A stretch of DNA of 64,000 bases from assembly GCF_000027125.1 (NCBI RefSeq), contig NC_017626.1. One strand, given 5' to 3'. Made by a program: the position numbers and the translations under genes. This document shows, piece by piece, positions 19,249 to 35,159 of this stretch. The notes below the pieces were generated by a model that did no database searches, was not told where the DNA came from, and saw only the letters and a list, made by a program, of their open reading frames with translations. How positions within the stretch are numbered: the stretch's first letter is position 1; each line of letters opens with the position of its first letter. Source of the DNA: Escherichia coli 042 (GTDB taxonomy: Bacteria; Pseudomonadota; Gammaproteobacteria; Enterobacterales; Enterobacteriaceae).

Positions 19249-20034
19249 ATGAACGCAGCACTATGGATCAGCAAAACCGGCCTCTCGGCGCAGGATGCTG
19301 AAATGAGCGCGATTGCCAACAACATCGCCAACGTTAACACCACCGGCTTCAAGCGTGACCGGGTGATGTTTCAGGATCTGTTCTACCAGACCCAGGAAGC
19401 GCCGGGCGCGATGCTCGATCAGAACAACATCATGCCGACCGGGCTGCAATTCGGTAGCGGCGTGCGCATTGTCGGCACCCAGAAAACCTTCACCGAAGGC
19501 AACGTCGAAACCACCGACAACGCCATGAATGTCGCCATTATGGGGCAGGGGTTTTTGCAGGTGCAAAAGGCCAACGGCGATATCGCCTATACCCGCGACG
19601 GCAACTTGCAGGTGAACGCCGACGGCGTACTGACCAACTCGCAGGGCTTGCCGTTGCAGCCGGAAATCGACGTTCCGGCGGGGGCGACCAACGTCGCGTT
19701 TGGCGAGGACGGCACGGTGACGGCGATCTTACCCGGCGACAGCGATGTGACCGAGTTAGGGCAACTGACACTGGTGAACTTCGCCAACCCAGCGGGGCTT
19801 TCTGCCGAGGGCGACAACCTGTATCTGGAAACCGCCGCCAGCGGTCAGCCGACCGAAGGTGTGCCGGGCGAAGATGGGCTTGGCACCTTGCAGGACAACG
19901 CGCTCGAAGGCTCGAACGTGGATATCGTCAACGAAATGGTGGCGATGATTACGGTGCAACGCGCGTACGAGATGAACGCCAAAATGGTGTCGGCAGCGGA
20001 CGATATGTTGCAGTACATCAGCCAGACGCTGTAA
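19249..20034 (+). CDS. lfgG: FlgG homolog (distal rod)
   Basis: 261 aa from ATG 19249 (MNAALWISKTGLSAQDAEMSAIANNIANVNTTGFKRDR); track ORF start at 19123 lies inside the REP cluster. Confidence 0.88.
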   Translation: MNAALWISKTGLSAQDAEMSAIANNIANVNTTGFKRDRVMFQDLFYQTQEAPGAMLDQNNIMPTGLQFGSGVRIVGTQKTFTEGNVETTDNAMNVAIMGQGFLQVQKANGDIAYTRDGNLQVNADGVLTNSQGLPLQPEIDVPAGATNVAFGEDGTVTAILPGDSDVTELGQLTLVNFANPAGLSAEGDNLYLETAASGQPTEGVPGEDGLGTLQDNALEGSNVDIVNEMVAMITVQRAYEMNAKMVSAADDMLQYISQTL

Positions 20035-22495: not shown

Positions 22496-23872
22496 ATGGA
22501 CATGATTAACATCGGCTACAGCGGCGCATCAACCGCGCAGGTGGAGCTGAACGTCACGGCGCAAAACACCGCCAACGCCATGACCACGGGCTACACCCGT
22601 CAGGTGGCGGAGATCAGCACCATCGGTGCCAGCGGCGGTTCGCCGAACAGCGCCGGTAACGGCGTGCAGGTCGATAGCATTCGCCGCGTCTCCAACCAGT
22701 ATCAGGTGAATCAGGTGTGGTATGCCGCCAGCGATTACGGCTATTACAGCACCCAGCAAGGGTATCTCACGCAACTGGAAGCGGTACTGAGCGACGATAA
22801 CAGCAGCCTGAGCGGCGGCTTCGATAACTTTTTCGCCGCCCTTAACGAAGCGACCACCAGCCCCGATGATTCCGCCCTGCGCGAGCAGGTGATCAGCGAA
22901 GCCGGGGCGCTGTCGCTGCGTATCGACAACACGCTGGATTACATCGACTCGCAAAGCACGGAAATCATCAGCCAGCAGCAGGCGATGGTGTCGCAAATTA
23001 ATACGCTCACCAGCGGTATCGCCAGCTATAACCAGCAAATCGCTCAGGCCGAAGCCAACGGCGATAACGCCTCCGCGCTGTACGACGCCCGCGACCAGAT
23101 GGTGGAAGAACTCAGCGGGATGATGGATGTGCAGGTCAATATCGACGACCAGGGCAACTACAACGTTACCCTGAAAAACGGTCAACCGCTGGTGAGCGGG
23201 CAGCAAAGCTCGACCATCGCGCTGGAAACCAACGCCGACGGCACGCCGACCATGTCGCTGACCTTCGCCGGAACCACCTCGACGATGACCACCGACACTG
23301 GAGGTTCATTAGGCGCACTGTTTGATTATCAAAACGACGTGCTGACGCCGCTGACCGACACCATCAACAGCATGGCGTCGCAGTTTGCCGATGCGGTCAA
23401 CAATCAACTGGCGCAGGGCTACGATCTCAACGGCAACCCCGGCGAGCCGCTGTTTATTTATGACGCCAGCAACGCCGATGGCCCGCTGACCGTCAACCCG
23501 GATATCACCGCCGATGAGCTGGCGTTTTCCAGTTCACCGGACGAAAGCGGTAACAGCGACAACTTACAGGCGCTGATCAATATCTCCACCGAACCGCTGG
23601 AGATAGCCAACCTCGGCAGCGTGACGGTCGGGCAGGCGTGCTCGTCAATCATCAGCAATATCGGCATTTACAGCCAGCAAAACCAGACGGAAGTCGATGC
23701 CGCGTCCAATGTCTATTCCGCAGCGCAAAACCAGCAGAGCAGCGTCAGCGGCGTCAGCATGGACGAAGAGGCGGTTAACCTGATCACCTATCAACAAATT
23801 TATGAAGCCAATCTGAAAGTCATTTCCGCCGGGGCCGAGATTTTCGATTCGGTGCTGGAAATGTGCAGCTAA
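22496..23872 (+). CDS. lfgK: FlgK homolog (hook-associated protein 1)
   Basis: 458-aa ORF with axial-protein N-terminus and FlgK position. Confidence 0.85.
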   Translation: MDMINIGYSGASTAQVELNVTAQNTANAMTTGYTRQVAEISTIGASGGSPNSAGNGVQVDSIRRVSNQYQVNQVWYAASDYGYYSTQQGYLTQLEAVLSDDNSSLSGGFDNFFAALNEATTSPDDSALREQVISEAGALSLRIDNTLDYIDSQSTEIISQQQAMVSQINTLTSGIASYNQQIAQAEANGDNASALYDARDQMVEELSGMMDVQVNIDDQGNYNVTLKNGQPLVSGQQSSTIALETNADGTPTMSLTFAGTTSTMTTDTGGSLGALFDYQNDVLTPLTDTINSMASQFADAVNNQLAQGYDLNGNPGEPLFIYDASNADGPLTVNPDITADELAFSSSPDESGNSDNLQALINISTEPLEIANLGSVTVGQACSSIISNIGIYSQQNQTEVDAASNVYSAAQNQQSSVSGVSMDEEAVNLITYQQIYEANLKVISAGAEIFDSVLEMCS

Positions 23873-23886
23873 GCGGGAGCGCGAAA

Positions 23887-24816
23887 ATGCGAGTAACCAC
23901 CCAACAAACCTACGTCTCGATGACGCAAAGTTTTAATAATCTCTCCGGCGATCTGGCGCATGTGGTCGAGCAGATGGCAACCGGCAAGGAAATTTTGCAG
24001 CCGTCGGATGACCCGATCGCCGCCACGCGCATCACCCAGTTGAACCGCCAACAGTCGGCGATTGAGCAGTATCAGAGCAATATCGACTCCGCGTCGGCGG
24101 GGTTAAGTCAGCAGGAATCAATCCTTGATGGCGTCAACAACAGCCTGCTGGCGGTGCGCGACGACCTGCTGGAAGCGGCGAATGGCACCAATACCGCCGA
24201 TTCGCTCGCAAGTCTCGGGCAGGATATTGAGTCGCTCACCGAATCAATGGTCGTGGCGCTGAACTATCAGGACGAAGACGGGCATTACGTGTTTGGCGGT
24301 ACCATCAACGATCAGCCGCCGATTGTGGCGGTGGACGATGACGGCGATGGCGTGACCGACAGCTACAGCTATCAGGGCAACAGCGACCACCGCCAGACCA
24401 CGGTGTCGAACGGCGTGGAAGTGGATACCAACGTGGCGGTGAGCGATTTCTTCGGCAGCAATTTAGATGTGCTCAACACACTGAATACCCTGTCGCAGGA
24501 GTTGCAAGACCCAAACGTTGACCCGGCCGATCCGCAGGTGCAGAGCGATATTCAGAACGCCGTTGATGTGGTGGACACCGCCTCGGATAACCTCAACGCC
24601 TCGATTGCGTCGCTCGGCGAGACGCAGAACACCATGTCGATGTTGAGCGATGCGCAGACCGATATCTCTACCTCTAATGATGAGCTGATTGGTTCATTAC
24701 AGGATCTCGATTACGGCCCGGCGTCGATCACCTTTACCGGACTGGAAGTAGCAATGGAAGCTACCCTCAAGACTTACTCGAAAGTGAGTGAGTTGAATTT
24801 GTTCAGCGTTCTCTAA
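23887..24816 (+). CDS. lfgL: FlgL homolog (hook-associated protein 3)
   Basis: Start at ATG 23887 (MRVTTQQTYVSMTQ) with GGGAG ribosome-binding site; flagellin-like N-terminus (GKEILQPSDDPIAATRI); track start 23863 overlaps lfgK. Confidence 0.82.
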   Translation: MRVTTQQTYVSMTQSFNNLSGDLAHVVEQMATGKEILQPSDDPIAATRITQLNRQQSAIEQYQSNIDSASAGLSQQESILDGVNNSLLAVRDDLLEAANGTNTADSLASLGQDIESLTESMVVALNYQDEDGHYVFGGTINDQPPIVAVDDDGDGVTDSYSYQGNSDHRQTTVSNGVEVDTNVAVSDFFGSNLDVLNTLNTLSQELQDPNVDPADPQVQSDIQNAVDVVDTASDNLNASIASLGETQNTMSMLSDAQTDISTSNDELIGSLQDLDYGPASITFTGLEVAMEATLKTYSKVSELNLFSVL

Positions 24817-25882: not shown

Positions 25883-26227
25883 ATGATGTGGGACGTCGAG
25901 ACAACGGAGACTTTCGACAACTGGTTTGATGCCCAGACTGTTGCGCTGAAAGAAGATTTACTTGCTGCAATGCTGATTCTTGCTGAGTATGGCCCACAGT
26001 TGGGCAGACCCTTTGCGGATACGGTTAATGATTCACAGTTTTCAAATATGAAAGAATTACGCGTCCAACATCAGGGAAACCCGGTACGTGCTTTTTTTGC
26101 TTTCGATCCTGCGCGCCGTGGCATTGTATTATGTGCGGGTGATAAAACGGGGTTAAATGAGAAAAAGTTTTATCGCGATATGATCAAGCTCGCTGATTCT
26201 GAATACCGTAAGCATCTGAAAAAGTAA
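25883..26227 (+). CDS. HigB/RelE-superfamily toxin-like protein (Gp49-like)
   Basis: 114-aa ORF resembling the HigB/Gp49 killer family (ELRVQHQGNPVRAFFAFDPARRGIVLCAGDK), paired with a downstream HTH protein. Confidence 0.7.
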   Translation: MMWDVETTETFDNWFDAQTVALKEDLLAAMLILAEYGPQLGRPFADTVNDSQFSNMKELRVQHQGNPVRAFFAFDPARRGIVLCAGDKTGLNEKKFYRDMIKLADSEYRKHLKK

Positions 26228-26236
26228 GGAACGATA

Positions 26237-26536
26237 ATGGCTACTCTAAAAGAACTGATGGCAAAGCAAAGCCCTGAAAGCCAGGCGCGTATTGCGGCAA
26301 AAGTTGAGGAAATGCGCCAGACCATCGCCTTGCATCAGCTGAGAGAAGAACTCAATATTTCGCAAACGGAAATGGCGGCAGCGATGGGCATTAAGCAACC
26401 GACTCTTGCAAAAATGGAGCAGGCAGATAACGATCCTCGGTTGTCTACGCTAAAACGCTATGTTGCGGCTTTAGGTGGGGAATTGAGTATCGACGTTAAA
26501 CTGCCGAATGGTAAGAGAATTGCATTTCAGATTTAA
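26237..26536 (+). CDS. HigA-like HTH (XRE-family) antitoxin
   Basis: 99-aa ORF with HTH (LNISQTEMAAAMGIKQPTLAKME), 10 bp downstream of the toxin gene. Confidence 0.7.
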   Translation: MATLKELMAKQSPESQARIAAKVEEMRQTIALHQLREELNISQTEMAAAMGIKQPTLAKMEQADNDPRLSTLKRYVAALGGELSIDVKLPNGKRIAFQI

Positions 26537-27487: not shown

Positions 27488-27849
27488 AAAGCACAGTCTT
27501 ATACGTCCCTGAGAAGATGATTTTTCTGCGTGATAATTAATATTTTATGGTGATAAGATTATTCTTAATCACTATATAGCGTGGAAATGTAACGAAATGA
27601 CAGGACAGGTACAATAGCCAAATGTGTACTATTTGCAACGCAATGTAAATTTTGGCATCAGTACATTGAGAACAAAACGCGATAATTGATGACAATCTTA
27701 ACTATATCAAGCGTTTGATAAAGACATATTTTGATACCTGGCCATGTGGCAGATATTGCTAATAATCTTTTTATCTGAATTTAAACTCTGCTTTTTTTAG
27801 CTAAAAGTGGCATCGGATAATACGTGGCGAAAAAATTATAACGGCGATT

Positions 27850-27877
27850 TTAAGTTTGCTCCTGAGGTGTCGTTTTT
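27850..27877 (+). promoter_or_regulatory. Candidate sigma-28-type promoter upstream of lafA
   Basis: TTAAGTTT, 12-nt spacer, TCGTTTTT about 45 nt upstream of the lafA ATG; same layout as the lfgM candidate. Confidence 0.3.
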
Positions 27878-27921: not shown

Positions 27922-28836
27922 ATGTTATCTATTAACACCAATAACGCCTCAATGGCCGCCGTTAATGCAATCAGCAAAAGCAGCTCTTCTCTGTCTACAT
28001 CTATGGAACGCCTGGCGACAGGTAACCGGATTAACTCTTCTGCCGATGACGCCGCAGGCAAACAAATTGCTAACCGTCTGACAGCACAGTCCAGCGGTAT
28101 GGGTGTTGCGCTGAGCAACATCAATGATGCCACCGCGATGCTGCAAACCGCTGACAGCATGTTCGACGAAATGTCTGACGTGCTGGGTCGTATGAAAGAC
28201 CTGTCAACTCAGGCAGCGAACGGCACCTACAGCGACGACGACCTGCAGGCGATGCAGGACGAATACGACGAACTGGGCCAGCAGATGTCTGACATGCTGC
28301 AAAACACCACTTACGGCGGCACCAACCTGTTCGGTGTTTCCGGTACCAGCAACACCGGTACTGACGGTCTGTTCCAGAGCGCGGTAACTTTCCAGGTGGG
28401 CGCGGAATCTTCCGACACCATGACCGTGAATATTTCAAGCCAGCTGAATACCCTGGTGACGGATCTTTCTGCAATCAGCAACTCCTTTAGTGCGGATCAG
28501 GCTGACACCACTGGCACCGCAGGCGTTTCTGGCGGTACTGAGCTGACTGCGTCTGGCTCGGCTAACCAGATGATCACCAGCATCTCTACCGCGATGGATG
28601 ACGTGTCTCAGATCCAGTCCAAGCTGGGTGCCTCTATCAACCGTCTGAACGACACTGCCAACAACCTGACCAGTATGCAAGACAACACCGAAGTCGCTAT
28701 CGGTAACATCATGGATACCGACTACGCGACGGAAGCGTCCAATATGACCAAACAGCAAGTGCTGATGCAGACTGGCATCACCATGCTGAAACAGTCCAAC
28801 AGCATGTCCAGCATGGTTTCCAGCCTGCTGCAGTAA
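27922..28836 (+). CDS. lafA: Lateral flagellin
   Basis: Flagellin N-terminus (MLSINTNNASMAAVNAISKSSSSLSTSMERLATGNRINSSADDAAG) and C-terminus (TKQQVLMQTGITMLKQSN); start at 27922 with AGGAG ribosome-binding site. Confidence 0.9.
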   Translation: MLSINTNNASMAAVNAISKSSSSLSTSMERLATGNRINSSADDAAGKQIANRLTAQSSGMGVALSNINDATAMLQTADSMFDEMSDVLGRMKDLSTQAANGTYSDDDLQAMQDEYDELGQQMSDMLQNTTYGGTNLFGVSGTSNTGTDGLFQSAVTFQVGAESSDTMTVNISSQLNTLVTDLSAISNSFSADQADTTGTAGVSGGTELTASGSANQMITSISTAMDDVSQIQSKLGASINRLNDTANNLTSMQDNTEVAIGNIMDTDYATEASNMTKQQVLMQTGITMLKQSNSMSSMVSSLLQ

Positions 28837-28837
28837 T

Positions 28838-28870
28838 GGCGGACTTGCCGATGCGGCGTAAACGCCTTAT
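28838..28870. repeat. REP unit
   Basis: GCCGATGCGGCGTAAACGCCTTATCCGGCC. Confidence 0.8.
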
Positions 28871-28880
28871 CCGGCCACGA

Positions 28881-28927
28881 ACAACACCGCCTGCGGGCGG
28901 TGTTGTGCTTTCAGCGGCAGGCTTTTT
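28881..28927 (+). terminator. Rho-independent terminator after lafA
   Basis: GC-rich hairpin (CAACACCGCC...GGCGGTGTTG inside GCCTGC...GCAGGC) followed by TTTTTT. Confidence 0.65.
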
Positions 28928-28992
28928 TCCGCCAGAACGGAAACGTCATTTCCGCCTGTTTTTCAATCTATTGATTATTCACATAAAAAATA

Positions 28993-29008
28993 TTGGCACG
29001 CCTTTTGC
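28993..29008 (+). promoter_or_regulatory. Sigma-54 (-24/-12) promoter upstream of lafB
   Basis: TGGCAC-GCCTT-TTGCC, matching TGGCAC-N5-TTGC, 33 bp upstream of the lafB ATG. Confidence 0.7.
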
Positions 29009-29040
29009 CATTAACCTGACATCGTTACCCGGAGTCATCA

Positions 29041-30357
29041 ATGATTAACCCAAGAACCATTGCGCAAGAAATTGCTTATGCGGATGTCGCCACCCAGGCG
29101 GCAAATTTGCAGGAGAAGCAGACCGAGCTGGACGCTGAAAGCAGCGGCCTGGACTCGCTCAGCTCGGCGTTAAGCGATTTCCAGAGCGCCGTTGACGCGC
29201 TGAACAGCGATACCGACGGCCCGGTGACTTTTGCCGCCACCAGCAATAATGACTCGGCGACCGTTTCCGCTAACTCGCAGGCACAGGCGGGAAGCTACTC
29301 GTTTTTCGTTGAGCAACTGGCGCAGGGGCAGCAAACCACGTTCAGTATGGGCGACGACGCCTTTTCCGCTACCGGTACTTTTGAACTGACGATGGGCGAC
29401 AGCACCATGGATATCGATCTGTCGGCGGCAGATCAGAACGGTGACGGCGACGGTTTTATCGACGCCAGCGAACTGGTGAACGCGATTAACGACTCCGATG
29501 ATAATCCAGGCGTTTCAGCGGCGTTGGTGAAAACCGACGGCACCACCACCATTATGCTCACCTCCGATAGCACCGGGGCGCAGAGCGCGTTTTCGGTGAG
29601 CGTAACGGGGCATGATGCCAGCAACGATAGCACCAGCGCGCCCGTTGCCACGGTTGTTTCCTCAGCCCAGGACGCGATTATTCATCTCGGTAGCGCCACG
29701 GGCCCGGCGATCACCAACAGCAGCAATACGTTTGATGATGTGATCCCCGGCGTCACCATGACTTTTACCGAAGTCAGCGATTCTGACAGCGACCTCACCA
29801 CTTTTAACATCAGCGAAGATTCCAGCTCCAGCCAGGAGAAAGTACAGACTTTTGTCGATGCCTATAACACCTTGATTGATACGGTTGATTCGCTAACCAC
29901 TCACGGTGATGACAGTACCAGCGCCGGGGTATTTGCAGGCGACGCCGGACTCAGTTCACTGGCGAACCAGCTCGATGACATCGCCCATGCCAGCTACAAC
30001 GGCGTGTCGATTGTTGACTATGGCATCACCCTCGATTCTCACGGCCACTTACAGATTGACTCCGACCAGTTCAACGACGAAATGGCGAAAAATCCTGACG
30101 GTCTGACCTCTATTTTCGTTGGCGACAACAGCATGGTAGCGCAGATGGACGACCTGATTAACACCTACACGGACTCCAGCAACGGCATCATCACCCTGCG
30201 CCAGCAGAACATTGACGATCAGATGAGCAAAATTCAGGACGAAGGCGATCAGCTTACTGATACCTATAACGCCAACTACGACCGTTATCTCGAGGAGTAC
30301 ACCAACACGCTGGTCGAGGTGTACACCATGAAAGCCAGCATGGCGGCATTCGCGTAA
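29041..30357 (+). CDS. lafB: FliD homolog (filament cap)
   Basis: 438-aa ORF with FliD-like termini, directly after the flagellin gene. Confidence 0.82.
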   Translation: MINPRTIAQEIAYADVATQAANLQEKQTELDAESSGLDSLSSALSDFQSAVDALNSDTDGPVTFAATSNNDSATVSANSQAQAGSYSFFVEQLAQGQQTTFSMGDDAFSATGTFELTMGDSTMDIDLSAADQNGDGDGFIDASELVNAINDSDDNPGVSAALVKTDGTTTIMLTSDSTGAQSAFSVSVTGHDASNDSTSAPVATVVSSAQDAIIHLGSATGPAITNSSNTFDDVIPGVTMTFTEVSDSDSDLTTFNISEDSSSSQEKVQTFVDAYNTLIDTVDSLTTHGDDSTSAGVFAGDAGLSSLANQLDDIAHASYNGVSIVDYGITLDSHGHLQIDSDQFNDEMAKNPDGLTSIFVGDNSMVAQMDDLINTYTDSSNGIITLRQQNIDDQMSKIQDEGDQLTDTYNANYDRYLEEYTNTLVEVYTMKASMAAFA

Positions 30358-30379: not shown

Positions 30380-30772
30380 ATGTACCAAGTACAGGACGGC
30401 TATTCGCAATATAAAGAGATCGATCTCGCGGCGCGTACCGCGGCGGCATCGCCTCTGGAACTGGTGCTGGTGCTGTTTTCTGGCCTGATGGACGAGCTGG
30501 AACGCGCCAAAAGCCATATTGAAGGGCGGCGTTTCGAGAAGAAAGCCCAGAGCATCAATAAATGCATCGACATTCTCAATGCGCTCACCAGTTCGCTGGA
30601 ATTTGAAACCGGCGGCGAGCTGGTGGTCAACCTTTCGCGCCTCTATGACCACTGCGTTTACCGATTGTATGAAGCCAGCGGCGAACTGTCGGCAGAGAAA
30701 ATCGATGAAGTGATGCTGATCTTAAGCAACCTGCGCGAAGGCTGGGAAGGGCTTTCGGGCAAGCTGGGTTAA
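30380..30772 (+). CDS. lafC: FliS homolog (flagellin chaperone)
   Basis: 130-aa ORF with FliS-like sequence (LVLVLFSGLMDELERAKSHIEG). Confidence 0.85.
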   Translation: MYQVQDGYSQYKEIDLAARTAAASPLELVLVLFSGLMDELERAKSHIEGRRFEKKAQSINKCIDILNALTSSLEFETGGELVVNLSRLYDHCVYRLYEASGELSAEKIDEVMLILSNLREGWEGLSGKLG

Positions 30773-30776
30773 GACG

Positions 30777-31088
30777 ATGGAAAAACAACGCAGGCAACTT
30801 TTCGTACTGGTCGAGGCGATGAATGAAGCCCTCGACAAGCAACGCTGGCGACGCCTTCCGGCCCTGCATCAGCAGGTGATGCGCCAGTTTCACGATTATG
30901 CGACGGCGGAAACCGATGCGACGCAGTTGTGTGCGGTGAAGGCGCAACTGTACGGCGCGTTTAATGCCCTGATTAAACGACGCGAGCAGCGCGCAGAAGT
31001 GTTGAAAGCGCGTATGGAGCAGCATCAACGGCATCAGGAAGGTGTGCTGGCCTACTCAATTGTTAATTTACTTTCGGAGAAGTCATGA
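30777..31088 (+). CDS. lafD: FliT-like chaperone
   Basis: 103-aa helical ORF after the fliS homolog (fliD-fliS-fliT order). Confidence 0.6.
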   Translation: MEKQRRQLFVLVEAMNEALDKQRWRRLPALHQQVMRQFHDYATAETDATQLCAVKAQLYGAFNALIKRREQRAEVLKARMEQHQRHQEGVLAYSIVNLLSEKS

Positions 31089-32146
31089 ATCCGGCATTGC
31101 TTGCCACGCTCGGAACGCTTGCGGAAACGGCGTCGCTGAAAGCGGATATTTTACCGCCGATGAGCGGTAAAAACGCGCCCGCGTTTACCCTGCCGAAAAT
31201 GGCGGTCGCGGCGGTGGCGGAGCGCGTTCATAGCGCTAAAACCAGTCAGCAACAGGCGACGCGCCCGCAGGAGAACGATCCGGTGGCGATGCAGGCGCTA
31301 ATGGCGCTGTTACTTCCGCAACCTGCCGCGACGCATCAGGACACGCCGCAGCCGCGAAACGTCGCAACATCGCCGGTTATTCAGCAATTGACGAAAGCGG
31401 TGGTGCAAAACGCGCCGCAACGCCCGACACAACAGCAGGAACTCACGACATTGCCGCCACAGTTGCAGGAACTGATCGGTCAGTTGCCGCAGGCGAAACC
31501 CGAACAGCAGGCCAGACTGGCAATTTACGCCAGTGAAGATTTACATGCCATTGCGCCGACGCAGCCGCGCGTCTCAACACAGCCCGCTCGCCCGAAACCT
31601 GAACTAACCCGTGTGACCGCGCGCCCACAGGTCGAGCGTAAAACGGAAAAAGTGCCGGACAGCGAACCGGTTATTGCGCGTGCGGTGTTGCAGGTTAAGA
31701 CGCCGGAGCTGGTCAGCCAGCATCAGGAGATTGTCGCCAAACCAGCCACGCTTTCAATGGACGAACTGGGCGAAAAACTGACGACGCTGTTGAAAGATCA
31801 GATCCACTTTCAGCTCAACAAACAACAGCAGATCTCCACCATCCGTCTCGATCCACCGTCGCTTGGCAAGCTCGAGATCGTCGTACAACTCGATAACGGC
31901 AAACTGATGGTGCACATCGGCGCGAACCAAAGTGAAGTTTGCCGCGCGTTACAACAGTTTAGCGACGATCTCCGCCAGCATCTGACGGCGCAAAATTTTA
32001 TGGAGGTGAACGTACAGGTTTCCTCCGAAGGGCAGTCGCAGCAACAACAACAGTCGGGCCATCAGCAGGAAGAGGTGAGTGCCGCCTTACAGCTTGATGA
32101 TGCGCCTCAATTTCAACAGAACGAATCCGTTTTGATCAAAGTGTAA
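31085..32146 (+). CDS. lafE: FliK homolog (hook-length control)
   Basis: Pro/Gln-rich linker and C-terminal FliK-type domain (LDPPSLGKLEIVVQLDNGKLMVHIGANQSEV). Confidence 0.78.
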   Translation: MNPALLATLGTLAETASLKADILPPMSGKNAPAFTLPKMAVAAVAERVHSAKTSQQQATRPQENDPVAMQALMALLLPQPAATHQDTPQPRNVATSPVIQQLTKAVVQNAPQRPTQQQELTTLPPQLQELIGQLPQAKPEQQARLAIYASEDLHAIAPTQPRVSTQPARPKPELTRVTARPQVERKTEKVPDSEPVIARAVLQVKTPELVSQHQEIVAKPATLSMDELGEKLTTLLKDQIHFQLNKQQQISTIRLDPPSLGKLEIVVQLDNGKLMVHIGANQSEVCRALQQFSDDLRQHLTAQNFMEVNVQVSSEGQSQQQQQSGHQQEEVSAALQLDDAPQFQQNESVLIKV

Positions 32147-32153
32147 AGGCAAT

Positions 32154-32621
32154 ATGAAGAAAATCGTGGTGGCGGGCGTGGTCAGCGCCGTTCTGGCGTT
32201 GGTGGTGGGGGCCGGAGCTGGATGGGGTGTCTGGCATCATTATGCCGGAAAAGGAAAACCGACTGCCGCCGCGCAGACGGAAACGGTGGAAACCCTGGAT
32301 GAAAGCAAAAGCGTGTTTGTGACGTTGCCGGAAACCATTGTCACTTTGCATGACAACAACGGCGCGGACCATTATTTGTCGGCGGAATTAGTGATGGTGG
32401 TTGCCAGTGACAAAGAAGCGGAAAAAATAAAACATCAGGAGCCGCTGTATCAAAGTATTGCAGTTGAATGCCTGACGGAAATGAAATTTGAAGATTTGCG
32501 CGGCATGAAAATATCTGCCATCCGCAAACTGATTTCGGATGCGTTAAAGAAAGATCTTCAACGTCGCAAAATGAGCGCACCGTATAAGGATTTGCTGGTG
32601 AAAAAAGTGGTCTTCCAGTAA
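32154..32621 (+). CDS. lafF: FliL homolog (basal-body-associated membrane protein)
   Basis: 155-aa ORF with one N-terminal TM helix and FliL-like periplasmic region. Confidence 0.75.
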   Translation: MKKIVVAGVVSAVLALVVGAGAGWGVWHHYAGKGKPTAAAQTETVETLDESKSVFVTLPETIVTLHDNNGADHYLSAELVMVVASDKEAEKIKHQEPLYQSIAVECLTEMKFEDLRGMKISAIRKLISDALKKDLQRRKMSAPYKDLLVKKVVFQ

Positions 32622-32640: not shown

Positions 32641-33357
32641 ATGCTACAGGATGTATTCGAGTCAGAAGAATTTGCTGCCGCGCCGGTATTAACCCCGCAG
32701 CAGGAGAGCCACTACTTGCAGGCCTATTTACCACTGGTGCGTAAAGTTGTGCGGCAACTTGCCCCGCAGTGTAATTGCATTATTGATCGTCAGGATATGG
32801 AACAAACGGCGTTAATGGGGCTGCTTAATGCCATTCGCCGCTACGGACTGCCGGACGAAGGTTTTGCGGGCTATGCCGTGCACCGTATTCGCGGCGCGAT
32901 CCTGGATGAGCTGCGCGCTCTCGACTGGCGACCGCGCCAGCTGCGACAGAAATATCATCAGATGAAAGATCTGATTCGTGAGACGCGCAAAAAACTGGGG
33001 CACGAACCGGAGTGGTCAGAACTGGCCGTGGAAGGGATTTCGCATGAAGATTATCTCGAATATCAGCAACTGGAAGGGGCGGAAACGCTCGCCAGCCTGG
33101 ACGAACTGCTGAACGGTGAAGGGCCCGGCATTCCACTTGCTGGCAGGGAACTGGAAGATCAGTTTGTCACCCAGCAAATGCTGCAACACGCGCTTTCACT
33201 ATTAAGCGAAAAAGAGCAACTGATCCTCTCCATGTATTACCAGCATGAGATGAATCTCAAAGAGATTGCGCTGGTATTAGGGCTAACCGAGGCCCGAATT
33301 TGTCAACTGAATAAACAGATCGCGCAGAAAATTCGTGATTTTGTCTATCCGAATTAA
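32641..33357 (+). CDS. lafS: Sigma-28 (FliA-family) sigma factor
   Basis: 238-aa ORF with sigma-70 region 2 and region 4 HTH (LKEIALVLGLTEARICQLNKQI). Confidence 0.85.
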   Translation: MLQDVFESEEFAAAPVLTPQQESHYLQAYLPLVRKVVRQLAPQCNCIIDRQDMEQTALMGLLNAIRRYGLPDEGFAGYAVHRIRGAILDELRALDWRPRQLRQKYHQMKDLIRETRKKLGHEPEWSELAVEGISHEDYLEYQQLEGAETLASLDELLNGEGPGIPLAGRELEDQFVTQQMLQHALSLLSEKEQLILSMYYQHEMNLKEIALVLGLTEARICQLNKQIAQKIRDFVYPN

Positions 33358-33369
33358 AGTGAAGAAATC

Positions 33370-34233
33370 ATGCAAAAAATATTAGGTTTACTGGTGGTGC
33401 TCGGCTGCGTATTTGGCGGTTATTTTGAAGCGGGCGGGCAACTAGTGGCTATCTGGCAACCGGCGGAGATGATCATTATTTGGGGTGCCGGTTTCGGGGC
33501 GATGATTATTGGTAACCCGAAACATGTGCTGAAAGAGATTGCCCATCAAATTAAAGGCGTGATCAGTAAAAAACAGCTCGGGCCGGAGTTTCAGCGCCAG
33601 CTATTAATGTGTCTGTATGAGTTGCTCGAAATGGTGCAAAACGGTGGTCTGCGCATGTTGGATCAGCATATTGAGCAGCCGGAAGAGAGCACCATTTTCC
33701 AGAAATACCCGCTGGTGTTAACCCAGAAGCGGCTGGTGACCTTTATTGCCGATAACTTTCGCCTGATGGCGATGGGCAAGATTGACGCCCATGAACTGGA
33801 AGGCATTCTCGATCAGGAACTGGACACCGCGGAAGAGTCCCTGTTAACGCCGTCGCGCTCGCTGCAACGTACTGCCGAAGCGATGCCGGGATTTGGTATT
33901 TGCGCGGCGGTGCTGGGCATCATCATCACCATGCAGTCGATTGATGGATCTATCGCCCTGATTGGCCTGAAAGTGGCGGCGGCGCTGGTGGGGACGTTTT
34001 TAGGCGTCTTTATCTGCTACTGCCTGATGGACCCGCTCGCCAACGCCATGGAACAACAGGCGCGGGCGGAACATTCTTTGCTGGAGTGCGTGCGTACTGT
34101 GCTGGTGGCGCAGGCAGGCGGCAAACCGACGCTGCTGGCGGTGGACGCCGGGCGTAAGCTGCTGCATCTGGCGTCCAAACCGACCTTCGCCAACCTCGAT
34201 GCGTGGGTGAATGCGATGCTGGAGCAAGAATAA
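33370..34233 (+). CDS. lafT: MotA homolog (stator)
   Basis: 287-aa four-TM protein with MotA/TolQ/ExbB-type C-terminal helices. Confidence 0.85.
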   Translation: MQKILGLLVVLGCVFGGYFEAGGQLVAIWQPAEMIIIWGAGFGAMIIGNPKHVLKEIAHQIKGVISKKQLGPEFQRQLLMCLYELLEMVQNGGLRMLDQHIEQPEESTIFQKYPLVLTQKRLVTFIADNFRLMAMGKIDAHELEGILDQELDTAEESLLTPSRSLQRTAEAMPGFGICAAVLGIIITMQSIDGSIALIGLKVAAALVGTFLGVFICYCLMDPLANAMEQQARAEHSLLECVRTVLVAQAGGKPTLLAVDAGRKLLHLASKPTFANLDAWVNAMLEQE

Positions 34234-34235
34234 GC

Positions 34236-35159
34236 ATGAGAAAGACGGGCAACCGCCGCGAGCGTGGGGCAAAAACCACCATCGTCCGGCGGCAGATCAA
34301 AAAGAATCATGCCGGGCATCATGGCGGGGCGTGGAAGGTGGCGTTCGCCGATTTTACTTTGGCAATGATGGCGCTGTTTATGACGCTGTGGATTGTCAAC
34401 AGCGTCAGTAAATCCGAGCGTGAAAGCATTATCGCCGCGCTGCACGGGCAGTCGATTTTCAATGGCGGCGGGTTGTCGCCGTTAAATAAAATCAGCCCGT
34501 CTCATCCGCCAAAACCTGCCACCGTGGCGGCGCCGGAAGAGACGGAGAAAAAAGCGCGTGACGTCAATGAGAAAACGGCGCTGCTGAAGAAGAAATCCGC
34601 TACTGAGCTTGGCGAGCTGGCGACCAGTATCAACACCATTGCCCGTGATGCACATATGGAAGCGAATCTGGAGATGGAGATTGTTCCCCAGGGACTGCGC
34701 GTGCTGATTAAAGATGACCAGAACCGCAATATGTTTGAACGCGGCAGCGCACAGATTATGCCGTTCTTTAAAACTTTGCTGGTGGAGCTCGCGCCAGTGT
34801 TCGACTCGCTCGATAACAAAATTATTATTACCGGGCATACCGATGCGATGGCCTACAAAAACAATATCTACAACAACTGGAACCTTTCGGGCGATCGCGC
34901 GCTTTCGGCTCGTCGGGTGCTGGAAGAGGCCGGAATGCCGGAAGATAAAGTGATGCAGGTGAGCGCGATGGCGGACCAGATGCTGCTGGACGCGAAAAAT
35001 CCGCAAAGCGCGGGCAACCGACGCATTGAGATTATGGTGCTGACCAAAAGTGCGTCCGATACGCTGTATCAATACTTTGGTCAGCATGGGGATAAAGTGG
35101 TGCAGCCGCTGGTGCAAAAGCTGGATAAGCAGCAGGTGCATTCGCAGCGAACGCGCTAG
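34236..35159 (+). CDS. lafU: MotB homolog (stator, OmpA-like peptidoglycan-binding domain)
   Basis: N-terminal TM helix (FADFTLAMMALFMTLWIV) and OmpA-like C-terminus (NWNLSGDRALSARRVL); start at ATG 34236. Confidence 0.85.
   Translation: MRKTGNRRERGAKTTIVRRQIKKNHAGHHGGAWKVAFADFTLAMMALFMTLWIVNSVSKSERESIIAALHGQSIFNGGGLSPLNKISPSHPPKPATVAAPEETEKKARDVNEKTALLKKKSATELGELATSINTIARDAHMEANLEMEIVPQGLRVLIKDDQNRNMFERGSAQIMPFFKTLLVELAPVFDSLDNKIIITGHTDAMAYKNNIYNNWNLSGDRALSARRVLEEAGMPEDKVMQVSAMADQMLLDAKNPQSAGNRRIEIMVLTKSASDTLYQYFGQHGDKVVQPLVQKLDKQQVHSQRTR

Follow-up and report, generated by a model that had tools for sequence, protein, structure and literature searches.

A conserved sigma-54 promoter in front of the predicted lafB operon of the Escherichia coli Flag-2 locus, with a candidate LafK enhancer upstream

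The window analyzed here, a stretch of 64 kb, comprises the Flag-2 (lateral flagella) locus of E. coli, as identified from the RefSeq annotation of strain CB6837 and NCBIfam scans. The fliR-fliM-like genes, lafK and the fliE-J-like genes are followed by a variable region that encodes a glycosyltransferase and a lysine-N-methylase, then by the flgN-M-A and flgB-L-like genes, lafA and lafB-lafU, after which comes dinB (Table 1); laf gene names, lafD included, and locus layout are given after PMC6993521. The chromosomes of E. coli A10 and CB6837 show 100% identity to a 2.6-kb lafA-lafB query, and the Flag-2 lafA-lafB region is carried by about 1275-1282 of 5426 complete E. coli genomes, which is roughly one quarter. 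The rpoN gene, a core gene of E. coli, is absent from the 64-kb window. The flgL-like gene (23863-24816) is called a pseudogene in RefSeq for CB6837, its C-terminus being missing, and Flag-2 may therefore not be functional in the strain of the window. PMC4578781 regards Flag-2 as presumably silent or inactivated in certain strains and reports it to be inactive in strain 042. Genes for a RelE/ParE toxin and an HTH antitoxin (25883-26536) are inserted within the flagellar locus, between the lafW-like gene and lafZ.

Table 1 Coordinates of genes and predicted regulatory features in the 64-kb window, with the basis of each assignment
Feature	Coordinates	Strand	Basis
lafK, sigma-54 enhancer-binding protein, 326 aa	3299..4279	+	domain scan
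Third promoter: dyad 13990-13976, sigma-54-type site CGGCACGCTTATTGCA 13935-13920	13920..13990	-	motif and dyad scans
lfgB promoter: dyad GGAA-N7-TTCC 15514-15528, sigma-54 site TGGCACAGCGATTGCT 15580-15595	15514..15595	+	motif and dyad scans
Sigma-28-like lafA promoter TTAAGTTT-N11-GTCGTTTT, presumed LafS target	27850..27876	+	15 Enterobacterales loci; sigma assignment inferred
lafA, lateral flagellin	27922..28836	+	NF033376, 667 bits
REP-like element directly after the lafA stop	28847..28876		resemblance to REP consensus
lafA terminator hairpin ACAACACCGCC-TGCG-GGCGGTGTTGT, then GCTTTC (short U-tract)	28881..28906	+	RNA fold, alignment
Half-sites TTCC-N8-GGAA-N7-TTCC, TTCCGCCAGAACGGAAACGTCATTTCC; candidate LafK enhancer (UAS)	28927..28953		alignment, dyad counts
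IHF core consensus WATCAANNNNTTR, exact match AATCAATAGATTG, between dyad and promoter	28964..28976	-	consensus scan
Sigma-54 -24/-12 element TGGCACGCCTTTTGCC	28994..29009	+	sequence, E. coli alleles, cross-taxon conservation
Predicted transcription start, about 12 nt past GC; leader about 21 nt	29019..29021	+	standard sigma-54 geometry
Shine-Dalgarno GGAG, 6 nt ahead of the lafB ATG	29031..29034	+	sequence; GGAG kept in orthologues
lafB, FliD-like filament cap	29041..30357	+	ORF, RefSeq annotation, NCBIfam
lafC, FliS-like chaperone	30380..30772	+	ORF, RefSeq annotation, NCBIfam
lafD, small protein, no family match	30777..31088	+	ORF; name from PMC6993521
lafE, FliK-like hook-length control protein	31085..32146	+	ORF, RefSeq annotation, NCBIfam
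lafF, FliL-like protein	32154..32621	+	ORF, RefSeq annotation, NCBIfam
lafS, FliA/WhiG-family sigma-28	32641..33357	+	NF009091, 445 bits
lafT, MotA-like stator protein	33370..34233	+	TIGR03818, 376 bits
lafU, MotB-like stator protein; final gene ahead of dinB (35230)	34239..35159	+	NF005273, 578 bits

The promoter assigned to lafA was derived from the orthologous regions of 15 Enterobacterales, in all of which the element is kept, and its -10 sequence GTCGTTTT is unusual. A scan with the standard E. coli sigma-28 (FliA) pattern TAAAGTTT-N11-GCCGATAA gave nothing convincing anywhere in the window, the region upstream of lafA included. On the 3' side of lafA lies a GC-rich hairpin of 11 bp that is kept across genera with compensatory changes; as its U-tract is poor in E. 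coli, transcription of lafA may read through it. The element between the lafA stop codon and this hairpin is called REP-like from its likeness to the E. coli REP consensus. The divergent lafZ-lafA region furthermore contains a near-perfect palindrome, TATCAAGCGTTTGATA (27705-27720), with two overlapping IHF-consensus matches, and after it another TTTTGATA. The palindrome is a possible operator, of the CadC/ToxR-like LafZ for instance.

In the 204-bp intergenic region between lafA and lafB, the first-pass annotation had placed a sigma-54 motif, TGGCAC-GCCTT-TTGCC, which the sequence bears out to within one base. Its start at 28993 took in one extra T on the 5' side and its distance of 33 nt from lafB has to be read as 32 nt, counted from C29008 to the ATG on the same strand; its placement after the lafA hairpin was correct. 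TGGCAC occupies 28994-28999, GCCTT 29000-29004 and TTGC 29005-29008, with the final C at 29009, and the GG and GC doublets (28995-28996 and 29007-29008) are exactly 10 nt apart, which is the canonical spacing. Compared with the extended sigma-54 consensus mrNrYTGGCACGrNNNTTGCWNNw, reportedly compiled by Barrios et al. in 1999, 16 of the 18 specified positions match. The element departs from this consensus by a C at the 'r' position and by a C instead of W directly after TTGC, where 20 of 22 orthologues carry a T, and the E. coli lafB site may for these two reasons be weaker than that of its relatives. The window holds two exact copies of TGGCAC-N5-TTGC, at 15580 and at 28994 on the plus strand, against an expectation of 0.31; each lies just upstream of a flagellar operon, the copy at 15580 in front of the flgB-like lfgB. 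If one mismatch is allowed, nine sites are found versus 7.9 expected, i.e. there is no enrichment; near-consensus counts are thus uninformative and the case rests on the exact matches and on conservation.

Ten E. coli alleles, picked so as to represent the variety of lafA-lafB spacers, were fetched and compared. TGGCAC and TTGC are invariant in all ten of them; the allelic differences fall into the 5-nt spacer (GCCTT to GCTTT) and the bases just upstream and just downstream of the element. Local identity goes down to 88%, and the spacer varies in length between 205 and 763 bp, a range that stems from REP/BIME-like arrays inserted directly after the lafA stop codon. These insertions (up to about 560 bp) always lie between the lafA stop codon and the terminator hairpin and never between promoter and upstream dyad (see below). 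The corresponding segment of the window, 28837-28880, appears as a hotspot for REP/BIME-like arrays among E. coli strains.

A genome scan with an alignment of nine LafB sequences yielded 79 loci, one genome per species, in which the best GG-N10-GC arrangement within 300 nt upstream of the fliD-like start was called as a site if at least 9 of 12 consensus positions matched. Such a site was present in 41 of the 44 gammaproteobacterial loci, in spacers and flanks that are unrelated or diverged, at 24-67 nt from the fliD-like start codon and, in two Vibrio species, at 132-157 nt. It was found in Citrobacter, Phytobacter, Leminorella, Enterobacter, Pseudescherichia, Dryocola and Tatumella as well as in Enterovibrio, Vibrio, Pseudomonas/Stutzerimonas, Alkalilimnicola, a Cellvibrionaceae MAG and Ferrimonas; the three gammaproteobacterial loci with no qualifying site belong to Colwellia, a Xanthomonas species and Shewanella electrica. 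For comparison, sites scoring 10 or more occur at 6 × 10−5 per position in the scanned loci, true sites included, corresponding to about 0.004 per 70-nt region. When 22 Enterobacterales sequences were anchored on the motif, TGGCA and TTGC carried 2.0 bits and the most variable spacer positions about 0-0.2 bits, a pattern which is a classic phylogenetic footprint. Site counts alone are weak evidence, and it is this conservation pattern that decides for a promoter. On these comparative grounds a chance origin of the motif can be regarded as excluded, and the lafB motif is, judged by its conservation, a real and strongly conserved sigma-54 promoter whose function is well supported, though it is ordinary and previously published.

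None of the 35 betaproteobacterial or unclassified loci gave a sigma-54 site. The homologous fliD...sigma-28-motAB operons of betaproteobacteria are without the sigma-54 site and without the dyad described below; they share instead an element ATTTCAG-N15/16-GGTCGCCTT, about 40-90 nt before the fliD-like start, the -10 part of which resembles the lateral sigma-28 -10. Their sequences suggest a different and possibly self-reinforcing wiring of these operons.

Upstream of the E. coli -24/-12 element, the alignment of the same 22 Enterobacterales sequences unveiled three further conserved tetranucleotides, namely TTCC at -68 to -65, GGAA at -56 to -53 and TTCC at -45 to -42 (counted from the T of TGGCA), separated by unconserved spacers. 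Further conserved blocks in this alignment are a TTGAtTT block and an A-tract adjoining the -24 element. In the window the dyad GGAA-N7-TTCC lies at 28939-28953 and the half-sites together span about -93 to -67 relative to the predicted transcription start. Four copies of GGAA-N7-TTCC are present in the window where about one is expected, and three of these dyads lie upstream of the three best sigma-54 sites of the window, those of lafB, lfgB and the gene for the lysine-N-methylase. The fourth dyad, at 19662 within the flgG-like gene, lies close to no sigma-54 site and was set aside, one dyad being expected by chance. Furthermore, the window has only three copies of the 9-mer TTCCGCCTG, 44, 55 and 44 nt before the sigma-54 sites of lafB, lfgB and the methylase gene, respectively.

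The last of these three sites lies 34 nt before the ATG (13885-13883) of the lysine-N-methylase gene (12956-13885, minus strand), which has the glycosyltransferase gene of the variable region downstream of it. The first-pass annotation had counted the lafB promoter as the second sigma-54 promoter; the lafB site itself stands, and the ordinal does not, as this minus-strand site is a third one in the window. Since it shares the dyad and the 9-mer with the other two, flagellin-modification genes appear to belong to the same regulon.

The coupling of dyad and promoter extends well beyond E. coli. The dyad was found upstream of all 42 lafB-type sigma-54 promoters across taxa and upstream of all ten lfgB promoters (from ten genera), here at 66-69 nt and within the coding sequence of lfgA, which runs the opposite way. 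Related loci totaling 965 kb contain 50 dyads, and for 44 of them a sigma-54-like site comes 30-130 nt later. At the lafB promoters the dyad offset is about 55 nt in Enterobacterales, 66 nt in Enterovibrio, 97-100 nt in Pseudomonas, Stutzerimonas, Ferrimonas, Alkalilimnicola and Cellvibrionaceae and 110 nt in Vibrio, so that offsets of about 55, 66, 99 and 110 nt differ by multiples of 11 nt, i.e. whole helical turns. Even in the most divergent E. coli alleles, the dyad spacers are changed and the half-sites are kept. In the allele of E. coli O111 RM9322 a 23-bp unit with half-sites, TTTCCGCCAGACCGGAAACGCCA, is present in 3.3 tandem copies with 100% identity (locus positions 249-325, corresponding to about 28925-28950 of the window); 132 of 1275 E. 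coli records fall into the identity band typified by this allele, a figure that reflects band membership and not individual inspection. In RM9322-type alleles the repeated half-site unit may tune expression.

Given the dyad symmetry, the helical phasing, the coupling to sigma-54 sites and a locus that has no other activator gene, LafK is the obvious candidate for the protein that binds the dyad. On balance, we consider it probable from these patterns that GGAA-N7-TTCC, often extended to TTCC-N8-GGAA-N7-TTCC, is the enhancer of the LafK family from Enterobacterales to Vibrio, Pseudomonas/Stutzerimonas and Ferrimonas, placed an integral number of turns (about 5, 6, 9 or 10) upstream of the -24 element, and that it defines a three-promoter regulon in E. 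coli. This regulon would comprise lfgB, lafB and the flagellin lysine-methylase gene together with, probably, the downstream glycosyltransferase gene. A literature search found no report of a LafK binding site and no LafK binding data. The candidate enhancer, the IHF-like site and the third promoter are reported here in addition to what the first-pass annotation had described, and for the dyad no prior report was found.

The segment between dyad and promoter contains one of eight exact IHF consensus matches in the window, versus 2.2 expected. The TTGAtTT block, which is part of this match in E. coli, carries 0.7-1.2 bits in Enterobacterales, many orthologues reading cTGAaT, and lfgB promoters carry tCAA-N4-TTA in the other orientation. 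IHF is accordingly named here only as a candidate for a role at the lafB promoter, from the sequence match.

LafK itself is intact. It carries the sigma-54 interaction domain PF00158 (1.7e-64) with Walker A, the GAFTGA motif at residues 79-84, an AAA lid and an HTH_8 domain (Fis-type HTH); a full sigma-54 activation domain was also noted for LafK of PCN033 (PMC4578781). As its sigma-54 domain begins at residue 6, there is no N-terminal regulatory or sensory domain, and the Enterobacterales orthologues listed, with about 324-348 aa, have the same domain architecture. Lacking a sensory domain, LafK is probably active whenever it is made, which suggests control by the abundance of LafK and not by a signal-sensing domain. 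Neither a sigma-54 site nor the dyad was found in the spacer between the fliM-like gene (lfiM) and lafK (2912-3298), so that transcription of lafK probably relies on another sigma factor, as has been reported for Aeromonas (PMC4481668). The lfiM-lafK spacer also contains REP-like elements and very A/T-rich DNA.

Downstream of the promoter the eight genes lafB to lafU overlap or are separated by gaps of at most 22 nt, and the order lafB-C-E-F-S-T-U is kept in all complete loci (lafD was not among the queries). Within lafB-lafU, terminator-like matches are weak and no commoner than in shuffled sequence, no plus-strand LafS-type promoter comparable to that of lafA was found, and no convincing sigma-70-type promoter was detected. 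The sole 9/12 sigma-70 match in the lafA-lafB spacer (29016-29045) overlaps the lafB start codon, cannot serve lafB and was discarded. Tight packing, conserved gene order and the lack of clear internal signals argue for the cap/chaperone/FliK/FliL/sigma-28/stator operon that the first-pass annotation had proposed behind the sigma-54 motif; weak internal promoters and read-through from lafA into the lafB operon are possible. Its further proposal, that lafS itself is under the control of sigma-54 and LafK, gains computational support from the footprint, the operon layout and the intact LafK and agrees with the published cascade. In that cascade LafK activates the class II lateral genes, including the lateral sigma-28 gene fliA-L, and the lateral sigma-28 then drives the class III genes (PMC4481668; PMC11242183). 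The class II promoter PflgB of Aeromonas dropped from 970 to 20 Miller units in a lafK mutant (PMC5013049). A fliA-L mutant of Plesiomonas showed lower expression of the orthologous cluster (PMC11242183), which points to a sigma-28 input to this cluster in some species. For E. coli Flag-2 the literature search found no transcript, rpoN-mutant or lafK-mutant data.

Taken together, we propose that the sigma-54 (RpoN) holoenzyme would form a closed complex at the -24/-12 element and would need an ATP-dependent activator to proceed. LafK, the only such activator encoded in the locus, would bind the half-sites TTCC-N8-GGAA-N7-TTCC, and a bend in the A/T-rich stretch with the IHF consensus (28964-28990) would carry it over to the polymerase, so that the lafB promoter would depend on both RpoN and LafK. 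Transcription would start near 29020 and run through lafB-lafC-lafD-lafE-lafF-lafS-lafT-lafU. With lafS inside the lafB operon, the lateral sigma-28 and its targets, lafA at least, would come after LafK and sigma-54 in the cascade. To this reading we assign a probability of roughly 85%. Sigma-54 without core polymerase often binds DNA poorly. Purified RpoN alone did not shift the lafB promoter of V. parahaemolyticus in EMSA (PMC9817140).

A real sigma-54 promoter might instead be served by LafK bound elsewhere or acting from solution, the dyad then being the operator of another factor or a second terminator hairpin of lafA. The latter would fit the observation that GGAAACGTCATTTCC with CCTGTTTTTC behind it scored as terminator-like and is paired in the RNA fold predicted here, and the dyad is centered just some 74 nt from the predicted start, a short distance for an enhancer; moreover, no LafK binding data came up in the literature search. 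As a terminator, however, the dyad would have a stem of just 4-6 bp, it is not followed by a T-run in other genera, and it would make no sense at lfgB, where the coding sequence of lfgA, running the other way, contains it. Offsets across taxa that differ by multiples of 11 nt and the coupling of 44 of 50 dyads to a sigma-54 site also speak against this alternative, which we consider unlikely, though a serious contender.

It could also be argued that the motif is vestigial or non-functional in a largely cryptic cluster, lafB-lafU being expressed, if at all, by read-through from the sigma-28-type promoter of lafA. The weak U-tract of the lafA terminator in E. coli, the reported inactivity of Flag-2 in strain 042 (PMC4578781) and the effect of FliA-L on the orthologous Plesiomonas cluster (PMC11242183) would agree with this. 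Expression by read-through only is circular, however, as lafS would require LafS for its own expression, and motif and upstream elements are kept across the E. coli alleles and 41 distant loci while neighboring bases drift, which makes a vestigial motif improbable. The idea that the palindrome TGGCA-N7-TGCCA is a minus-strand hairpin or terminator, or the operator of a dimeric repressor, and no sigma-54 promoter at all derives from the listing of TGGCAAAAGGCGTGCCA plus a T-run as a minus-strand terminator-like site. No minus-strand gene ends there, though, and the palindrome is broken in 20 of 22 orthologues, which read TTGCT and not TTGCC with the sigma-54 consensus kept; the terminator reading was rejected for these reasons and the palindrome interpretation as a whole is very hard to credit. 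The RpoN promoter with LafK at the dyad accordingly stays our preferred reading.

If it holds, the promoter fixes the logic of the Flag-2 cascade for E. coli as well as its relatives: LafK and sigma-54 would switch on the lfgB operon (hook-basal-body) and, in parallel, the cap/chaperone/sigma-28/stator operon, and flagellin would be turned on only after LafS. The promoter itself is nothing new and agrees with the textbook picture of lateral flagella. Concrete and cheap experimental targets are the candidate enhancer and the third promoter, which would tie flagellin-modification genes to the same switch, and the combination of dyad and sigma-54 site may serve as a signature by which LafK regulons of other bacteria could be predicted from sequence. 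Although about one quarter of complete E. coli genomes carry the region, no published test of Flag-2 regulation in E. coli was found in the literature search.

The closest known case is Flag-2 of E. coli PCN033, for which Liu et al. 2015 (BMC Genomics 16:717; PMC4578781) reported TGGCAC-N5-TTGC upstream of lfgB and lafB. Locus, consensus and both positions are the same there, and the lafB sigma-54 site is thus already known as a prediction; that paper devotes one sentence to it, without conservation analysis, upstream elements, a third promoter or promoter experiments. The V. parahaemolyticus lateral hierarchy (Stewart and McCarter 2003, as relayed in PMC4481668 and PMC11242183) has the same outline, since there LafK and sigma-54 activate class II genes including the sigma-28 gene, which in turn leads to late genes such as lafA. 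A sigma-54-like site is predicted before VPA1550 lafB, and the lafBCD transcripts fall in an rpoN mutant (PMC9817140). The order lafB...lafS-lafT-lafU is common to both systems. In contrast, LafK of Enterobacterales (about 326-348 aa) has no N-terminal domain, and for E. coli the dependence is a prediction. In Vibrio, LafK is a longer, FleQ-like protein. The two Vibrio loci sampled have the dyad about 110 nt from the promoter instead of 55 nt and the promoter 132-157 nt ahead of the start codon.

Classical sigma-54 promoters that combine an enhancer with DNA bending by IHF (general principle in PMC2709558), among them nifH, glnHp2 and pspA, share the layout of dyad, IHF consensus or A/T-rich bend and GG-N10-GC. 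Classical sigma-54 activators are, like LafK, AAA+ proteins with GAFTGA and a Fis-type HTH. PspF, too, has no regulatory domain. Unlike in these classical systems, the candidate enhancer in Enterobacterales is unusually close to the promoter, and the role of IHF is here a candidate one, from the sequence match. We know of no activator site that the GGAA/TTCC half-site matches. Finally, the FleQ- and FlrA-dependent fliD promoters of the polar flagella of P. aeruginosa and V. cholerae also express fliD from an RpoN promoter, and V. cholerae fliD is among the RpoN-bound promoters (PMC9817140). In contrast to the lafB operon, these polar operons have no sigma-28 or stator genes after fliD. The FleQ box, GTCaNTAAATTGAC, bears no relation to GGAA-N7-TTCC.
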